A DNA stretch of 64,000 bases, from IMG/VR virus record IMGVR_UViG_3300025890_000019, one strand, 5' to 3'. The notes below the pieces were generated by a model. It was not told where the DNA came from. It did no database searches and saw only the letters and a list, made by a program, of their open reading frames with translations. Below are positions 25,120 to 42,884 of the stretch, piece by piece (within the stretch, counting starts at the first letter, position 1; every line of letters starts with the position of its first letter). Both the position numbers and the translations under genes were made by a program. The DNA comes from a virus.

Positions 25120-26136
25120 ATGGCTAGTTTAACAACATTACTTCAAACCAAATACGATTTTTCAGTAGGAAATGAGACTAACCTTGAAAAAGGTAGAATT
25201 TATCAATATTATCCAGGTACATCAAGAGGAACAAACTTTAGATGTCACGTGTGTTTCGTTGCACCATCAGATGGTACAGCAACCATAGAAATATGGGGAG
25301 CAGGTGGAAGTGGCGGAAAAATGTGTTGTTGCGGTGGAGGAATTCCAGGTAACCCAGGTGGTTATGCTAAGAAAACAATCGCAATGGCTGAAGGTTGTTA
25401 CGTTTGTGCAATTATTGGACTGTCATGTGGTAACTCAGACACACTTTGTTTTAGAGGTTGCTCAGAACCAACTCAAGTGTGTTGGTTTGGTGACGCAGGT
25501 GGTGATGGTTGTATATGTGCCCAAGGTGGTATAGGTGGAAGAACTTGGTGTTCAACTGGTAGTTCAATCTACTGTTGTGCAGTGGCGGCTAACTTCTGTA
25601 ACACACAGGGTGGCGGAACTTATTGCGGAATTGTTTGTAACTTTATGGATTCAGCATCATGTCCTCAATTCTGTGCTTTTGCATATGGTGGAGACACAAA
25701 CTGTTATGGTGGATTTAGTTGTCATTACTTTAGAGGATGTCAACCAAACTGTAACTGTAGACAGGTTCCAGTTAATAAATTTCCTCCAGGAATGATTTCA
25801 ACAGAGGGTGGTGAAGTACACTACACAATGGATTCAGACAACGGAAGATCACAATGGTCAGGAATGGGCGGTTGGATGAATGCTTCACATGGTTTCAACC
25901 TAGCAACACGTAACCCTACAACAGGCGGTCCTTACACTGGTTGTTGGGAAGGTAACAGAAGTTGTGGTTGTTACGATATGCAAGGTTGTAACACTTTTTA
26001 TCCAGCAGGTATTGGAGGACAAGGACCAACACCGTGTGATGGAGTAAGAGATCACGCACACAGAGGTGGTCACGGATTAATGAGAATTAAATTTATTTCA
26101 CCAACAGATGAATACGATCTACCAGCAGTACCGTAG
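25120..26136 (+). CDS. Cysteine-rich glycine-rich-domain protein 2
   Basis: 338 aa, 31 Cys; EIWGAGGSGGKMCCC; colinear with its neighbours. Confidence 0.75.
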   Translation: MASLTTLLQTKYDFSVGNETNLEKGRIYQYYPGTSRGTNFRCHVCFVAPSDGTATIEIWGAGGSGGKMCCCGGGIPGNPGGYAKKTIAMAEGCYVCAIIGLSCGNSDTLCFRGCSEPTQVCWFGDAGGDGCICAQGGIGGRTWCSTGSSIYCCAVAANFCNTQGGGTYCGIVCNFMDSASCPQFCAFAYGGDTNCYGGFSCHYFRGCQPNCNCRQVPVNKFPPGMISTEGGEVHYTMDSDNGRSQWSGMGGWMNASHGFNLATRNPTTGGPYTGCWEGNRSCGCYDMQGCNTFYPAGIGGQGPTPCDGVRDHAHRGGHGLMRIKFISPTDEYDLPAVP

Positions 26137-34756: not shown

Positions 34757-37700
34757 ATGGCAAAAAAACGTATACAAACATACAAATTTACACCAGGAAT
34801 ACCAGAAAGCGGAAATCTTTATCCTAATGCATGGGCTCAAATTAATGCCAACAAAGAATGGTTAAAAGACGAATCCACCGCTTTTATAGATGCAAAAATT
34901 GTTACAGACACAGCGGCAGATTTATATCCAAACTCATCATTAAGATATCTTAACAACAGAGAATATGTTAAAGCAGAAGTGGCGGCATGGGTTGCTGTAC
35001 AAGTTGCTGGAAACATTTCACCATTTGCTGGTTATACAAAAACTGCTACACAAATCAAAACTGACGTAGAAGCAGTTATACAAGCGGCATATCTTGATAT
35101 GAGATATGGCGGTAATGAAAATATTAGAAAACAATCGCAAACTTATTATGTTGACGGAGTACTTCAATTGGCATCTGCTGGAGAACCTGAATTAGCATAT
35201 TGGACAAAAGCGAAACAAATTATAGATTTATACATCTTTACAGGTTTAGCATACAGCAGTATCAACACAGATGGACTGTCACAAAACACATCAGGTTCAA
35301 ATGCAGAACCGGCTGGTAAGACAGGATTCGCGGCAAACATGGCTGTAATTGATAATGTTGTGGACAATGGTATTTTAAATTTACCAGCATTACAAAGTTC
35401 CGCTTATGTGTTTGCCAATTTTGTATATGATTCTTACCTTTGTGAAAGAGACATGGGGTACAATATTGATGGTCTTTTAAAAGATATCAGATATGGTGGA
35501 AATGAGCAATCAAGATACAATGCTTCAACTTACTGGGTCGGCACAGTTTCTGTACTAGATGGTGATAGACAACCTGAGATAGCAACTAAAAATGAAATTA
35601 GAAACATCATCAACAATTACGTAATACCTGGCACTGCATACGCTTCAAGACAGTCACCAGTTGTTACACAACAAACAATTTTAGGTACACCAGGAGAGTC
35701 AGGAGCAACTGCAAGAGTAACTTCTTTAGTTGGAATCATCACAGATGTGATCACAAACGGACTGGACAATCTACCAGCACTTGTAACCAACGGAATTTCA
35801 AGTGTTAAAATTCCTGAAAGAGTAGAATTATCAGAAATATTACTGATCACAAACACTTCATCAAATGCAGTGTTGTACACATTCAACGATCCTGCAAAAG
35901 GTGCCACAGTAACATATAAAAGAGAGTATCCAGAAGACACATCAAATCCAACAGCATTTGTTGATCCAGATTTTCCTAAAGCATTTCATGGCAATGACAC
36001 AATCACAACCATATTTTTAAATGCTGACACATCAACAGACGACGCAACAGATCAATTACAAATTTTTATTGAAGACGATGAAATAAGAACACGTCCATAT
36101 GATTTTGGAACAGATGCCATTGAAAGATTAAGAGTAGCACAACCAGAATCAATGCTGGATGCTGACTTTGAATACGGACTTCAGCCAACGAAGTGGCAAG
36201 CGATTGCAACACAAAGAGGTTATCCATCAATTTATGAAGTTCCAGGCACAGACTTTGATATTCAAACAGTAACATCAGATGCTTCAGCAGGAACACAAGG
36301 AATTGGTTCATCACTAATCACAGTGACAACAATTGGACCACACAATTTTGAAGCAGGACAACCATTTACAATCACAGGGTTTGATAATTCTGTGGCAGGC
36401 GCAAGTAGAGCCGCAGGATCATTTGTGGTAAACACAGTGCCAAATTCACTGTCATTTACCTATTATGGAAAAGCAAAAGTGGGATCAGTAAATCCTACAA
36501 CAATTTCCACAAACTTTACACAATTAAGAGAAGGTGATTTTTACACAGGTGCGGCAATTGGATTTCCGTCATTCAGTATTGATTCAAATGGATCTTCAGG
36601 AAACTTTGTAACCAGCCTAGCAACATTATCAGGTGCTACAATTTTACCATACACAGGTGTACAGCCAGAAATAGGAGCACCACTTACAGGAACAGGAATT
36701 CAAACAGGTACACAAATTACAGCAGTTAACGGATCTGGTGGAGCACTAGCATCACCGACAGTAACAGGAGATTATGTTGCAGGTGCAACAGCAATCACTG
36801 TGCAAGATTCTGCGGGCATAATTCAAAACTCTGTGATTGACAGAGGTGACGGATTTGCTGTAACAATTATCAGTGTGGCAGGAAACGATTTGACATTGAG
36901 TGCACCTTTGACACAAGATTTAATTGGAGACATCACACAGTATCCAGGTCTAGCAGGAACAAATTATACACCACAAGGACAGTTAGGAAGATTTGACATT
37001 TTCAGAGTGGGCGGATCATATTCTGTGTCGCTAGTTACAAATGGACAAGTGGGTTCAGGACAAGATTATGCAGTAGGAGATGCAATAGTTGTAAGCGGAA
37101 CTGATTTAGGTGGAGCAACACCAGCCAATGACGCTATTGTTACTGTGGAATCAGTTGACACTGGCGGAGAAATTTTAACAGCATCTGTCACAGGAACAGC
37201 ATTCACAGGCACAGGCACAGCATCAGCAGTTGCCACACAATTGCAAGGCAATAACGGAACAGGTGCTCAGATTAATGTAACAAAAAATGCAGGCTCATAC
37301 ACAGTGGCATTGAACAGTCCTTCATACACAGGTGTTGGTCTTGCCTCTTATGCAGGATCACAAGGTGCAGGAGCAATTTTTGATATAGATGTAGATGCTG
37401 GTGTATACACAGCGACAGTGGACACAGCAGGAACAGGATACATTGTGAATGATGTGGTAAGATTAGGCGGTTCTACATTTGGTGGAACAGGCGCAAATGA
37501 TTTAGACATAAGAGTAACTGCTGTGGGCGGTTCAGGTGAAATACAAACAATCAGTGTGGCAGGTACAGCACCGAATCAAACTGTAAATTACACATCACCA
37601 GTATACACAACTCCAAGTGCTGGAGGAGTTACAGCGGCATTCACTGTGACAAGAACAGGAACAGTATACTCTGCAGTGGTAACAACAATTGGAGCAGGTT

Positions 37701-40700
37701 ATTCAGCAACAGATGTGCTTACAATATTAGGAACACAACTTGGTGGTGCAACCACAGCCAACGATGCAACAATCACTGTTGATTCAGTTGATGGTAATGG
37801 TGGAATTTTAACATTCACAGTAGCAGGTACGGCTGTTAATACTCAAACATATCCAAATCAAAACACAGGCACTAACATATCAGGAACCAACGCTACTTTT
37901 GATGTGGCAATTTCTGGAACTGGTTACACAGTAACTTTAAACAATGCAGGTGACGATTATGGTGTTGGACAAACACATACAATCGAAGGAACAAGTTTAG
38001 GTGGAGAAACACCAGCCAATGACGTAACAATAGTAATTGACACAGTGACAGGCACAGGTGCAAGTGGAATTGCAACAATTACGCCAACAGGTACAGCGGC
38101 ATTAGAAGGAACATCAGGTTACACAGTTGGTGATCAATTCTTTGTAAGTGGAACAGACTTGGGTGCGGCAACACCAACCAACGATGCATATGTATCCGTA
38201 AGCACAGTGAACGGCAATGGTGGTATCACAGCATTAACAATCAGCGGAACAGGCACAGATGCCAATGTAGATTATACCAGTGCTACTTGGACAACTAGTG
38301 GTTCAGGTACTGGTGCAGTTGTAGACATTAACAGAACAGGAACTGTGTACACAGCGACTTTCACAAACACAGGTGCTTCATTTGCCGCGGCAGACACTAT
38401 CACAATTTTAGGAACAGCAGTAGGCGGATTGACACCAGCCAATGATGTCACAATCACAGTTGACACAGTGACAGCAGGTGCAATAGCCACGTACACTGTG
38501 GCAGGCACAGCAGTGAACACACAAACATTCACAGATGTAAACAAATCAGCAAGAACACCGTCAGGATTAACAATGGATGTAACATTGTCTGGTGGATCAT
38601 ACACATTGGCAATTGCAAATGGTGGTAGCGGATATGGTTTAAATCAAACATACAAAATTGAAGGTACATCAGTGTTTGGTGCATCACCAACAAATGATTT
38701 AACATTCACAATTGCAGGTATAAATTCTGTAGTAGGAGGTCAAGTTACATCAGTGTCAGCGGCAACTGGAACTGCAAACACAGGCACAGGTAATGCATTG
38801 AATGTGGCAGGTTCAAACAGAGCTCCAATAGGTGTTGGTGCTCAATTCAGTATTACTAGAACCAATGACACAGATTCATCAACGGATTACACAGAAGTCA
38901 CTGTGGTTCAAGATGGATCAAACTATGCAGTTGGAGACAAAGTTGTAATTAGTGGAGCAAGTCTGGGTGGATCAACACCAGCCAATGATATAACTGTTCG
39001 TGTACAATCGATCACTTCATTCGGTGGTGTGGTTAACAACACACATTCAGGAACAGCAATTGGAGGAACTGGTATCAGTGTATACTCTTCAGTAACAATT
39101 TCAGATCCAGTTTCACAAGCAATTCCATTATCTGCAACAATATCATATTCTGCATTGGCAACAATGAGAGTTAATTTCACAACACCACATGGACTTGTGC
39201 CAGGTAATGCATTTTTAGTTGTGATACAATCAGATGACGGATCAAACAATCACATATTGGCTTCAGGACCATTCTTAGCAACATCAATTCCATCACCAAC
39301 AAGTTTAACATATCAAGTGAGATCACCAGGTGCTATCACAGATGCTGGTTGGCAAGGATCTATATATGGTAGACCAGATTCATTCTTTATACACAGACCA
39401 TTTGATGGTGGTGTACAATTAGGAACAGGTGGACCGGCTCACGGTGCTCAAGCAATACGTCAATCTAAAAAATATATCAGATATCAATCAGGTAAAGGTT
39501 GTATGTATACCACTGGTGCTCTATTTGCTCCAAGTTATGACATACTTGATTTATCAGCAGATGGCACAGCATCAGGTTCTACAATCACTGTAACAACAGA
39601 TGATGTTGACCACAATTTACAGGTAGGTGCTATTATTAGATTAGTAGGTATTGCAACATCAGGTTATGATGGAACATACACTATCACATCAATAACAAAT
39701 GAAAGAACATTCACAGTGATTGCACAAATCACTTTGGGAGGAACTACTCCAGAATTTACAGATCAACCTCAAGTGTCATTGTATCAATGGAATGGTGCCA
39801 CTGTAAGATCAGGTATATTTGATGATCAAAACGGAATTTTCTGGGAGTATGATGGACAAAACACAAATGCTGTGCAAAGAACTGCAACAAGACAATTGGC
39901 AGGCACAATCACAGTTACACCAGATTCAAATAATGTGACAGGTGTGGGTACAAGATTCAGAGAACAAATTAAAGCAGGTGACAGAGTTGTAATCAGAGGT
40001 ATGACACACGTGGTATCAGGAATTACAGACAACACAACAATGAGTGTTACTCCAGATTATAGAGGTGTTAACACATCATCAGGTGTGAAGATGTGTGCTG
40101 TGGTAGACAAAAAAGCAAAACAATCAGAATTTAACAAAGATGTATTAGACGGAACAGGACCAAGTGGATACAAATGGGACGTGTCTAAGATGCAGATGAT
40201 TGGGATACAGTTTTCATGGTACGGGGCTGGATTCATCGATTGGATGACTAGAGGTCAAACAGGTAACTTTATTTTTGTACACAGAATGAGAAATTCAAAC
40301 GTTAACACAGAAGCATTTATGAGAACAGGTAACCAACCTGTACGTTATGAAGTAACCAACGAAGGTCCTGGTGCAAAATTATTTGAAAATATGGATGCAA
40401 CACAAACCACACTTACAGTGGAAGACGCTTCATTCTTCCCAACAACAGGTGGTACTGTGTACATTGATAACGAAATTATAACATTTACAGGTATCACAGG
40501 TGACACATTGACAGGTTGTACTAGAGCGGCACAACTTACAAACTTTGCGGCAGGTGCCACAAGAAACTATTCAGCGGGTGCGGCGGCGGCACACTTTAGA
40601 AACACTGGAGTTGTGTTGATATCAAACACAGCATCTCCAATCATATCACACTGGGGATCAGCATATCTAACAGATGGTAACTTTGACGAAGATAGAGGAT

Positions 40701-41791
40701 ATCTATTCAGTTACTCAGGTCAAGGATTACGACTATCAACAATTAGACAAACTGTATTCTTAATGAGATTGGCTCCTTCAGTATCCAATGCCTTAACAGG
40801 TGACTTGGGAGACAGAGATCTATTGAACAGAGCCCAGTTGCTACTGGATGGTATTGAGATTACCACAGAGCCAGTTGCGGCAGGTGGTGTACAAGGTCAG
40901 TTGGTGATTCAAGGAATTATTAATCCACAAAACTATCCAATTGATCCAGCAGACATAGGTTGGACAGGACTACAAGGAACAGCACAAGGTGGACAACCAA
41001 GTTTTGCGGAGATTGCTCCGGGTGGTTCAGTTAACTGGAACGGTGGTGCATCAATCACAACTGCGACAGCAGACACGATAGCAGAAATGACATCTTCATC
41101 TACTCACTGGTTTAACTTGGGTGGTAACAGAAACTATATGTATTTCTTGGAAGCACAATGGGAAGGCAAAGGACACGTGGTAGGTATGCGTGTAACCTCA
41201 GCACAATTCCCTAGCAACACAGTGGTTACACAGATTAGTGATAATGGTTCATATTACTTTGTAAGATTTTCAAACAGACACACAGGTGTATCGGGCGGTG
41301 ATGCTGTGAACTTTGCATTTGGTGGTGACTTTGCAAGTACTAACTACTTGTTCTTTGATCCAACATCATGGGAAGCCTCAAACGCTGTTGCAGGTACTGA
41401 AGTGGATACAGCAACAACAACTGAATTTCCACCAGGCACAACTGTACAAAGTGTACAGGCTAAAACTGTGTTTGGGACAACAGAATACTACAGAGTTGAC
41501 TTTAACCAAACATTCAATGGAACGATTGCCGCGGCAAGCAGTATATCATTTAACTTTGGTCAACCTCCTTATGCACAACCAGGTGAAACTATTTTCTCTT
41601 TTGTTGCACAACCGGGTGAAAGAGCAACACTTGCCTTAGACAAGATCAAAGCATTAACTAACACTACCTTGGGAGGTAGAGGTACGTTCCCGAATGGTCC
41701 TGACGTGTTAGCGATCAATGTATTTAGAACTGCTGGTACAGGCGATGTATCCGCAACAGTTACACTGCGTTGGTCAGAAGCACAGGCTTAA
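34757..41791 (+). CDS. Giant virion structural protein (2344 aa) with 8 tandem Ig-like modules
   Basis: Modules containing G..LGG.TP.ND..I.V..V at ~37.1-39.0 kb; LRV..P.S..DADFEYG.Q.TKW and FIHRPFDGGV, RQSK.Y.RYQSGKG lectin-like segments. Confidence 0.75.
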   Translation: MAKKRIQTYKFTPGIPESGNLYPNAWAQINANKEWLKDESTAFIDAKIVTDTAADLYPNSSLRYLNNREYVKAEVAAWVAVQVAGNISPFAGYTKTATQIKTDVEAVIQAAYLDMRYGGNENIRKQSQTYYVDGVLQLASAGEPELAYWTKAKQIIDLYIFTGLAYSSINTDGLSQNTSGSNAEPAGKTGFAANMAVIDNVVDNGILNLPALQSSAYVFANFVYDSYLCERDMGYNIDGLLKDIRYGGNEQSRYNASTYWVGTVSVLDGDRQPEIATKNEIRNIINNYVIPGTAYASRQSPVVTQQTILGTPGESGATARVTSLVGIITDVITNGLDNLPALVTNGISSVKIPERVELSEILLITNTSSNAVLYTFNDPAKGATVTYKREYPEDTSNPTAFVDPDFPKAFHGNDTITTIFLNADTSTDDATDQLQIFIEDDEIRTRPYDFGTDAIERLRVAQPESMLDADFEYGLQPTKWQAIATQRGYPSIYEVPGTDFDIQTVTSDASAGTQGIGSSLITVTTIGPHNFEAGQPFTITGFDNSVAGASRAAGSFVVNTVPNSLSFTYYGKAKVGSVNPTTISTNFTQLREGDFYTGAAIGFPSFSIDSNGSSGNFVTSLATLSGATILPYTGVQPEIGAPLTGTGIQTGTQITAVNGSGGALASPTVTGDYVAGATAITVQDSAGIIQNSVIDRGDGFAVTIISVAGNDLTLSAPLTQDLIGDITQYPGLAGTNYTPQGQLGRFDIFRVGGSYSVSLVTNGQVGSGQDYAVGDAIVVSGTDLGGATPANDAIVTVESVDTGGEILTASVTGTAFTGTGTASAVATQLQGNNGTGAQINVTKNAGSYTVALNSPSYTGVGLASYAGSQGAGAIFDIDVDAGVYTATVDTAGTGYIVNDVVRLGGSTFGGTGANDLDIRVTAVGGSGEIQTISVAGTAPNQTVNYTSPVYTTPSAGGVTAAFTVTRTGTVYSAVVTTIGAGYSATDVLTILGTQLGGATTANDATITVDSVDGNGGILTFTVAGTAVNTQTYPNQNTGTNISGTNATFDVAISGTGYTVTLNNAGDDYGVGQTHTIEGTSLGGETPANDVTIVIDTVTGTGASGIATITPTGTAALEGTSGYTVGDQFFVSGTDLGAATPTNDAYVSVSTVNGNGGITALTISGTGTDANVDYTSATWTTSGSGTGAVVDINRTGTVYTATFTNTGASFAAADTITILGTAVGGLTPANDVTITVDTVTAGAIATYTVAGTAVNTQTFTDVNKSARTPSGLTMDVTLSGGSYTLAIANGGSGYGLNQTYKIEGTSVFGASPTNDLTFTIAGINSVVGGQVTSVSAATGTANTGTGNALNVAGSNRAPIGVGAQFSITRTNDTDSSTDYTEVTVVQDGSNYAVGDKVVISGASLGGSTPANDITVRVQSITSFGGVVNNTHSGTAIGGTGISVYSSVTISDPVSQAIPLSATISYSALATMRVNFTTPHGLVPGNAFLVVIQSDDGSNNHILASGPFLATSIPSPTSLTYQVRSPGAITDAGWQGSIYGRPDSFFIHRPFDGGVQLGTGGPAHGAQAIRQSKKYIRYQSGKGCMYTTGALFAPSYDILDLSADGTASGSTITVTTDDVDHNLQVGAIIRLVGIATSGYDGTYTITSITNERTFTVIAQITLGGTTPEFTDQPQVSLYQWNGATVRSGIFDDQNGIFWEYDGQNTNAVQRTATRQLAGTITVTPDSNNVTGVGTRFREQIKAGDRVVIRGMTHVVSGITDNTTMSVTPDYRGVNTSSGVKMCAVVDKKAKQSEFNKDVLDGTGPSGYKWDVSKMQMIGIQFSWYGAGFIDWMTRGQTGNFIFVHRMRNSNVNTEAFMRTGNQPVRYEVTNEGPGAKLFENMDATQTTLTVEDASFFPTTGGTVYIDNEIITFTGITGDTLTGCTRAAQLTNFAAGATRNYSAGAAAAHFRNTGVVLISNTASPIISHWGSAYLTDGNFDEDRGYLFSYSGQGLRLSTIRQTVFLMRLAPSVSNALTGDLGDRDLLNRAQLLLDGIEITTEPVAAGGVQGQLVIQGIINPQNYPIDPADIGWTGLQGTAQGGQPSFAEIAPGGSVNWNGGASITTATADTIAEMTSSSTHWFNLGGNRNYMYFLEAQWEGKGHVVGMRVTSAQFPSNTVVTQISDNGSYYFVRFSNRHTGVSGGDAVNFAFGGDFASTNYLFFDPTSWEASNAVAGTEVDTATTTEFPPGTTVQSVQAKTVFGTTEYYRVDFNQTFNGTIAAASSISFNFGQPPYAQPGETIFSFVAQPGERATLALDKIKALTNTTLGGRGTFPNGPDVLAINVFRTAGTGDVSATVTLRWSEAQA

Positions 41792-41913
41792 TGCTCCAAC
41801 TCATCAAACATATATGCGAGACGTGTGGGTGTGAACAACACTGCAAAAAATCGTGTGGAGAATGTCTAGATTGTCCAGACTGTGTTTGTAAGGAATGTAT
41901 TAACAAAGACTGA
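41791..41913 (+). CDS. 40-aa metallothionein-like Cys-rich peptide (not in the supplied ORF track)
   Basis: MLQLIKHICETCGCEQHCKKSCGECLDCPDCVCKECINKD: 10 Cys + 2 His; TAATG coupling to the giant gene; next ATG 4 nt downstream. Confidence 0.7.
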   Translation: MLQLIKHICETCGCEQHCKKSCGECLDCPDCVCKECINKD

Positions 41914-41917
41914 TAAG

Positions 41918-42505
41918 ATGAATTATAATAGGCTTCGTGTACTGGAAAGAGAAAACCCACACAAAGAACCTGAACGATGTTTTGTTTTACAAAAATTAAT
42001 TAAAAAACACAATTTAAAAAAAGGCGCTGAACTAGGAGTTAGAAGCGGCGAACTTTATTATTTTTTGTTATCTCATTGTCCTGAACTTACCCTGATTGGT
42101 GTAGATTTGTACGAAAGTCAACCAAATGGAAGTACTGATCCTCAACGAAAAAGAACATATGATCAACCTCATATGGGGTTTAGTTATGATCACTCACTGT
42201 ATTACAATTTCATAAAAGAGTTACAAAATGAATTTGGAACAAGAGCTCAATTTATAAAAGATTGGACTTCAAATGCGTCTTTATTAATTGAAGATAATTC
42301 ATTAGATTTTGTGTTTTTAGATGCTGATCATGGATTTGATGGATGTTCGCAAGATATTGAAAAATGGACACCAAAAGTTAAATCTGGTGGATTTATAACA
42401 GGACACGACTTCTGGTTGTCAGGAGTAAAAAAAGCAGTACAAAAATATTTTGGCAACGATTATAAGAAACACCCAGATCACGTCTGGATACATCAAAAAA
42501 AATAA
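41918..42505 (+). CDS. Class I SAM-dependent methyltransferase (Methyltransf_24-like)
   Basis: GAELGVRSG, LIGVD.Y, LDFVFLDADH.F.G...DI..W..KVK.GG.I.GHD; start moved from 41882 to 41918 to fit the upstream small ORF. Confidence 0.82.
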   Translation: MNYNRLRVLERENPHKEPERCFVLQKLIKKHNLKKGAELGVRSGELYYFLLSHCPELTLIGVDLYESQPNGSTDPQRKRTYDQPHMGFSYDHSLYYNFIKELQNEFGTRAQFIKDWTSNASLLIEDNSLDFVFLDADHGFDGCSQDIEKWTPKVKSGGFITGHDFWLSGVKKAVQKYFGNDYKKHPDHVWIHQKK

Positions 42506-42506
42506 A

Positions 42507-42884
42507 TTATTTTTCTTCTATTTTTTGTGAATCGCCAGGAATGATTCTATAATTGTCTTCTGGATCGTCAGCAGTGCTCACTTCAGTGATGCTACCTCGA
42601 TCAGTTAAACATTGAACTTGATGTGGCATTAGAGGTAAATTTCTCCATGTTTCGCCTTCTTTAAGTTCTTTTGTAAGTAACGTTGCAGTTTGAGTATCAA
42701 TCCAACTTAACAAAAATTTACCCTCATTTACAAACCAAGTTTCATCTTTGGTTTTATGAAAATGCATTGAAAATTTAGCACCTTTTCTTTCAAACACCAT
42801 TATTTTACCACAGTATTTGTCGTTGGAAGCCCAAATTAATTCGTATCCCCAACCTTTGTCTACTTTACCTTCTTTATTAATCAT
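42507..42884 (-). CDS. Cupin, mannose-6-phosphate-isomerase/ketol-isomerase-like
   Basis: KGWGYE.IW...KYCGKI....G.KFSMHFH..KDETW.V; PL.PH; EVST. Confidence 0.75.
   Translation of the reverse strand: MINKEGKVDKGWGYELIWASNDKYCGKIMVFERKGAKFSMHFHKTKDETWFVNEGKFLLSWIDTQTATLLTKELKEGETWRNLPLMPHQVQCLTDRGSITEVSTADDPEDNYRIIPGDSQKIEEK

Follow-up and report, generated by a model that had tools for sequence, protein, structure and literature searches.

A probably metal-binding ten-cysteine mini-protein encoded in uncultured marine T4-like phages

The 64,000-nucleotide (nt) stretch of viral DNA held as IMG/VR record IMGVR_UViG_3300025890_000019, referred to here as the window, encodes on its plus strand a mini-protein of 40 amino acids (aa), ten of them cysteine, whose coding sequence occupies positions 41791..41913, stop codon included, and is recognised from its translation, its pattern of substitution and its homologues. 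Judged by that pattern, the 40-codon frame is a real gene under purifying selection. Its product is probably metal-binding, going by the residues that are conserved, and across the collections searched the family to which it belongs turns up often in uncultured phages of the marine T4-like kind and almost nowhere else. The best explanation, to which we would give about even weight, is that it is an autonomous accessory mini-protein built on a dense, probably zinc, thiolate centre, which serves as a small binding module and is made late by coupled translation.

The sequence and coordinates proposed for this peptide in the initial annotation, with ten cysteines and two histidines, agree with the translation of 41791-41913, which places Cys at 9, 12, 14, 18, 22, 25, 28, 31, 33 and 36 and His at 7 and 17, with neither a signal peptide nor a hydrophobic stretch in the mini-protein sequence. 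The gene had also been described as filling its gap exactly, from a TAATG start to 4 nt before the ATG of a methyltransferase gene, and reading of the sequence confirms this: the ATG at 41791-41793 shares its A with the TAA (41789-41791) that ends the giant gene upstream, forming a TAATG stop/start overlap at 41789..41793 on the plus strand, and the TGA at 41911-41913 is followed by TAAG and then by the methyltransferase ATG at 41918. With 10/40 residues, or 25%, the Cys content lies within the 15-30% by which low-mass proteins are operationally called metallothioneins; over its six frames the window averages 4.6% Cys. A minus-strand, off-frame stretch at 25456, antisense to Cys-rich fibre-tip genes, has 13 Cys in 40 residues, and a Cys-rich composition by itself therefore proves no gene in this window.

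Relatives supply the evidence for a selected gene. When the final 300 residues of the giant protein served as query, 79 syntenic loci were recovered, 26 of which carry the same small frame beginning from the same TAATG, all of them at 87% identity or more in the giant C-terminus; the overlap is the same (offset 0) in all peptide-bearing relatives of the window clade. Across 14 diverged syntenic copies the proportions of synonymous (pS) and nonsynonymous (pN) differences in the peptide frame are 0.50 and 0.11, a pN/pS of 0.22, and the same ratio in the other two frames is 1.06 and 1.10. Cysteine codons 9, 18, 22, 33 and 36 switch synonymously between TGC and TGT in relatives, and within the window clade the ten Cys and His17 are all invariant, with His7 replaced by Tyr or Phe. 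The initial annotation had taken this for an overlooked gene and had suggested a search for syntenic small reading frames with a dN/dS-type test; the syntenic copies, their pN/pS and the conserved homologues bear it out, the gene being real and missed or left unnamed. The callers of several metagenome assemblies did predict it, each time without a name. A chance open reading frame is ruled out by the frame-specific pN/pS together with the distant homologues. A frameshift extension of the giant protein is likewise ruled out, the frame being open for only 21 nt before the ATG with no slippery heptamer ahead of the stop, and it is rejected also because the family sits behind unrelated genes elsewhere. 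Contigs from the RNA libraries of one study cross the stretch, which is weak support and cannot show transcription, strand or translation; those of RNA run X19 hold parts of the methyltransferase gene only. Searches of the stretch for an RNA element, promoter or terminator gave nothing over background.

The family is defined by the core C-x2-C-x-C-E-x-H-C-x3-C-x2-C-x2-C-x-D-C-x-C-x2-C, in members of 35-62 aa, and in the window this core corresponds to 28 conserved codons from Cys9 to Cys36 (41815..41898, plus strand), delimited by the invariant columns of two alignments. A clade profile compared with 1.84 billion representative proteins led to eight clusters at 45-50% identity that share the core, and a word-indexed search of 5.8 billion proteins found only 25 protein clusters, all metagenomic and all unnamed. 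In the relatives found without the constraint of a pattern, His17, nine Cys and the CPDC turn are without variation and Glu15 is variable; P0027 has Asp, potentially still a ligand, in place of Cys14, and the first Cys pair of P0028 is spaced x1. The exact back-translated pattern is present in at least 117 IMG/VR viral contigs and, on the prokaryotic side, in one contig among 185,579 species genomes. This sole prokaryotic match, L231 (NHCU01000032.1, 5427-6924), lies on an 8-kb contig of the metagenome-assembled genome (MAG) Betaproteobacteria TMED41; its gene order of unknown protein, peptide and FkbM methyltransferase is the phage order, and binning has probably assigned a phage contig to this MAG. 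On the strength of these searches the family is undescribed, uncatalogued and essentially missing from cellular genomes. Each of three gene-bearing phage records searched with the family profile holds one copy, and the same search found the family absent from the complete genomes of S-CAM1, S-CAM3 and HTVC008M. Three members compared by tblastn with 50,697 GenBank phage records found no relatives, some of which the low-complexity filter may have masked, and the finding of no longer or fused forms of the family is weak evidence. The 44-aa database version of P0007 (L101-L103) requires TGA to be read as Trp, and under code 11 a stop falls 6 codons earlier; the 44-aa form probably arose as an artefact of gene calling.

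In all, 132 loci were read, giving 91 unique peptides among which there are zero indels in the core; the residue counts that follow are from 90 unique sequences. Position 7 is aromatic (Tyr or Phe) in 72/90, and some sequences have Trp or Tyr elsewhere. The absence of Phe, Tyr and Trp remarked on in the initial annotation is thus true of the window copy, which has none, and does not extend to the family, and His7 is not a conserved ligand because most relatives have Tyr or Phe in its place. Conservation extends to positions that are not ligands, namely Ser21 (87/90), Glu24 (86/90) and Pro29 (88/90), the core has a net acidic charge, and subfamilies carry their own tails on the same core, with YMDDYGAY at the N-terminus or TADVRD or PYPTGDD at the C-terminus.

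Four CxxC knuckles (9/12, 22/25, 28/31 and 33/36) provide eight candidate ligands, and with Cys14, His17 and Cys18 there are 11 conserved ligand positions in 28 residues, or 12 candidates if Asp30 is counted. Metal binding appears likely because this density is metallothionein-like, and 12 candidate ligands would suffice to build three tetrahedral sites or a bridged cluster of three or four metals. One plausible course of events is that the mini-protein is produced late, by ribosomes that re-initiate at TAATG once the giant gene has been translated, and that in the reducing cytoplasm of the host it folds round a compact metal-thiolate centre, most likely of zinc. Two ions might sit in the four CxxC knuckles, and a third at Cys14, His17 and Cys18 with Asp30; alternatively, bridging thiolates could form a cluster of three or four metals. 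The least certain step is that the product would then act as a stand-alone metal-stabilised module, its variable N- and C-terminal tails addressing a host or phage target, and not as a metal store. A defined fold with partners is favoured over a storage peptide because of the aromatic residue at position 7, the conserved non-ligand positions, the acidic core and the subfamily tails, and this preference is a lean, not proof.

Comparison with known families clarifies what the mini-protein is not. It matches no model in Pfam, PHROG or NCBIfam, those for metallothionein families and for SCIFF included; the Pfam hmmscan, run for P0001 at E <= 0.1 and for 13 members at E <= 10, gave no match of any of these to the bacterial metallothionein model PF02069, and the family profile, compared with all PDB chains at E <= 10, reached no solved metallothionein. 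The metallothionein identity put forward in the initial annotation therefore stands in respect of ligand density and fails in respect of kinship, there being neither a metallothionein model or structure match nor, essentially, cellular homologues; by these comparisons the mini-protein is not a member of any metallothionein family. The PDB matches of the profile were to Cys-Cys-His-Cys (CCHC) knuckles, Gag proteins and one meiotic chromosome segregation protein, the best of them (the CCHC knuckles of HIV-1 nucleocapsid (NC) and Air2) at E 0.12-0.4, which is not significant. The PDB profile alignment picks out the sub-segment from Cys9 to Cys22 (41815..41856, plus strand), which has the C-x2-C-x4-H-x4-C spacing of CCHC zinc knuckles at Cys9, Cys12, His17 and Cys22, the last two invariant in all relatives. 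As an alignment-based resemblance this is a lead, not membership. The top ESM Atlas matches were unnamed clusters scoring 0.86-0.88, under the useful threshold.

Several considerations weigh against regarding the mini-protein as a metal-stabilised binding module. Eleven ligands in 28 residues exceed what ordinary zinc fingers have and equal what metallothionein domains have, and a storage or buffer role may be possible; the acidic core, for its part, speaks against binding of nucleic acid, the usual activity of CCHC knuckles. The conservation counts are non-independent, about 90 of the 132 loci being one lineage, and in the pattern-derived set the Cys residues, Glu15, His17 and Asp30 are fixed by the search pattern itself. 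AlphaFold2, given 13 and 39 sequences, returned models with a predicted local distance difference test (pLDDT) score of 61 and 66 that were left unused, and Foldseek against the PDB gave no match.

In the window, the giant gene (34757..41791, plus strand) encodes a 2344-aa virion structural protein (phrog_5838 'virion structural protein', E 1e-229), and the mini-protein gene is the last member of the late structural gene run. Downstream lie a Methyltransf_24 gene (41918..42505, plus strand; PF13578, E 1e-11), variably present in close relatives, and a convergent cupin gene (42507..42884, minus strand) that opens a minus-strand sugar cassette and abuts the giant-gene stop in relatives without the peptide gene; the neighbours comprise methyltransferase, cupin, epimerase and HldE-like genes. 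The DNA matches of the window are the Synechococcus T4-like phages S-CAM1, S-CAM3 and Syn30, and it therefore derives from a T4-like marine cyanophage. The stretch 41300-42500 has full word share in marine metagenome runs from about nine studies, 2014-2025, and the phage type is therefore widespread and recurrent.

Within the window clade the history of the gene can be followed as gain and loss. Relatives that lack it have the giant-gene stop a few bases from the end of the convergent cupin gene, and it is at this convergent junction that the peptide gene was inserted, adding about 125 nt. In a tree of the giant C-terminus the peptide-bearing loci all fall in one clade (support 100/100), and the gene is missing from all relatives at 77% giant C-terminus identity or less. 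Three loci without it (L036-L038), 85% identical in the giant C-terminus, are nested as sister to L039/L040, and one gain and one loss are inferred in the window clade because the tree places these three inside the peptide-bearing clade. The Methyltransf_24 gene is absent in L020, L024, L026, L028, L033, L039 and L040 and present in other near-identical relatives. Loci without it have a peptide terminating in GKSKKSK, VPTKSK or VEKSK, and there the peptide gene and the convergent cupin gene share 8 nt at their ends; loci with it have the tail INKD. The boundary of the insertion lies within the last codons of the peptide gene, since the tail changes with the presence of the methyltransferase. 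All three Cys-rich fibre-tip paralogues are kept in four relatives without the peptide gene, and the virion proteins therefore do not depend on the peptide.

In other phages the family occurs in quite different company. The main uncultured lineage (about 90 loci) has the order DUF6267, an opposite-strand gene, a 186-aa unknown protein, the peptide and an FkbM-type methyltransferase (PF05050, phrog_8156), the last directly downstream in 82 main-lineage loci (examples are L208:5834-6388, L195:9193-9804 and L178:6358-7080) and beginning within the final part of the peptide gene, the apparent overlap being 17 nt in most cases when the first ATG is taken. DUF6267 is a marine T4-like phage protein that adjoins UvsX and primase-helicase in HTVC008M. 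Throughout the family, most peptide starts share 1 or 4 nt with the stop upstream. In other contexts the peptide gene lies behind a GH19 gene (L111) or, in L108, between a 106-aa gene, itself downstream of a fatty-acid desaturase cluster, and an SNase gene; at other loci the upstream gene encodes an unknown protein of 80, 337 or 413 aa. Another T4-like lineage (L104, L112, L123, L166 and L229) holds a subfamily with the N-terminal extension YMDDYGAYMAL, its gene placed behind that of a 200-400-aa unknown protein and ahead of that of a 225-aa one; in L104 and L112 a T4 DsbA-like (PF11126) gene lies a few genes downstream. A profile hidden Markov model built on the 186-aa upstream protein detected no relative in the neighbours from other contexts, and main-lineage loci that lack the 186-aa gene or the methyltransferase gene retain the peptide gene. 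The family is thus without a constant neighbour, because its upstream and downstream genes differ and those of the main lineage are dispensable. The peptide gene adjoins an S-adenosylmethionine (SAM) methyltransferase gene in two independent contexts; pairwise comparison of the Methyltransf_24 and FkbM-type neighbours showed no similarity. Radical SAM genes also occur near the peptide, as two paralogues about 5 kb away in L178 (422-2907) and as a gene at position -3 in 18 main-lineage loci (e.g. L185:680-1957). From this comparison of gene orders the place behind the giant gene looks positional, the result of one insertion at a convergent junction and not a conserved partnership.

Four other explanations have to be weighed against the binding module. 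That the peptide is a phage metallothionein or metal chaperone, whose labile thiolate cluster would take up several ions of Zn, Cu(I) or Cd for buffering or delivery during infection, is a rather less likely possibility on the sequence evidence. It would account for the 25% Cys, and ten Cys with one conserved His make up the ligand count of four-metal metallothionein clusters, in hosts (marine picocyanobacteria) for which Zn and Cu are limiting or toxic. Yet the Pfam models and solved structures of metallothioneins are unmatched, absence from cellular genomes implies that this is not a host-derived metabolic gene, and neither a promoter nor a metal-regulator box of its own is seen for the reading frame, regional promoter-like sites being at background level. 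Moreover, the aromatic position 7, the conserved non-ligands and the lineage tails resemble a specific fold with partners, the core is acidic where classical metallothioneins are Lys-rich, and Cys-rich fibre proteins are present without the peptide. This last observation also tells against the suggestion in the initial annotation that the peptide supplies metal to Cys-rich virion proteins. Small genes downstream of fibre genes often encode packaged or chaperone proteins, and the peptide might be an assembly factor of the giant protein, held at a constant proportion by translational coupling and then either incorporated into the virion, perhaps with disulfide bonds formed outside the cell, or acting as a chaperone. 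The TAATG coupling retained in all peptide-bearing clade members, the position of the gene at the close of the late structural run and the presence of other Cys-rich virion proteins in the phage all fit such a role. It is nevertheless distinctly unlikely: L036-L038, all relatives at 77% identity or less, S-CAM1 and S-CAM3 do without the peptide gene, some 90 other loci place the family behind unrelated non-structural genes in a DUF6267-led block, and the 186-aa upstream protein of the main lineage is unlike the upstream proteins of other contexts. A specific partnership with the giant structural gene, to which the initial annotation described the peptide as coupled, is not supported, given the gain and loss within the clade and the unrelated upstream genes elsewhere.

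The methyltransferase and radical SAM genes raise the prospect that the peptide is the substrate or partner of a modifying enzyme, whether as a precursor like those of ribosomally synthesised and post-translationally modified peptides, as a zinc-thiolate methyl acceptor or as a small subunit. A SAM methyltransferase does lie directly downstream in two unrelated contexts, and the radical SAM genes at -3 and about 5 kb off point the same way, but the two methyltransferases are not detectably related, many loci in both lineages keep the peptide gene without a methyltransferase, and close relatives have no radical SAM family match within 5 kb downstream. With just 5-8 residues ahead of the first Cys there is no leader peptide, and SCIFF and the other NCBIfam models are unmatched; we consider this explanation highly doubtful. 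Very improbable indeed is an iron-sulfur or redox-active thiol protein, in which the Cys run would bind an iron-sulfur cluster or cycle between dithiol and disulfide. The C-x2-C-x2-C-x2-C run and CPDC do resemble cluster-binding and redox motifs, but the spacing differs from the ferredoxin C-x2-C-x2-C-x3-C-P, a thioredoxin fold is impossible in 40 residues, and no such family is matched.

Whichever explanation holds, the gene is one that family databases and most gene finding overlook, with 25 clusters in 5.8 billion proteins against 117 or more viral contigs. For a free-standing protein, 11 ligand positions conserved within 28 residues make one of the densest metal-site arrays known. If three or four metals are bound, the family would be either a virus-specific counterpart of metallothionein or a minimal cluster-folded binding module, and either outcome would be relevant to trace-metal use and host takeover in infected ocean picoplankton. 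The boldest version is a speculative one that we think rather unlikely: a cell-independent, virus-specific metallothionein analogue that captures or redistributes host Zn, Cu or Cd in infection, or a cluster of three or four metals forming the smallest scaffold yet known for a binder active in host takeover or against defences. Being short, the peptide lends itself to synthesis, so the matter is directly testable.

Parallels with known systems are instructive in their differences as well as their likenesses. CCHC knuckles (PF00098; HIV-1 NCp7, 1A1T; yeast Air2, 3NYB) share with residues 9-22 of the mini-protein their exact spacing and the Gly after the second Cys, but the mini-protein has two extra Cys inside the knuckle and five more after it, has Glu/Pro and Cys at the positions by which NCp7 contacts bases, has an acidic core and lacks a Pfam match. 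SCIFF/ranthipeptide precursors (TIGR03973) are similar in size, at about 45 residues, and in their C-terminal run of Cys at short spacing, whereas the mini-protein has no match to their model, no leader (8 residues precede the first Cys) and no adjacent dedicated radical SAM maturase in the window. SmtA binds four Zn by 9 Cys and 2 His (Zn4Cys9His2), and the alpha-domain of mammalian metallothionein is M4Cys11. The mini-protein is like SmtA/BmtA (PF02069; PDB 1JJD) in being small, in its 11 Cys/His ligands and in its picocyanobacterial setting, and unlike them in having no sequence or profile similarity, another Cys pattern, a phage-only distribution and no evident metal-responsive regulation. 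The zinc-thiolate domains of Gal4 (Zn2Cys6) and of the CXC and pre-SET type (Zn3Cys9) are dense arrays of Cys at fixed spacing whose bridging thiolates fold a very small domain for binding and not for metal storage; the mini-protein resembles them in kind only, being of other spacing and without sequence relation, and where they are eukaryotic domains of larger proteins it is a free-standing product of a phage.

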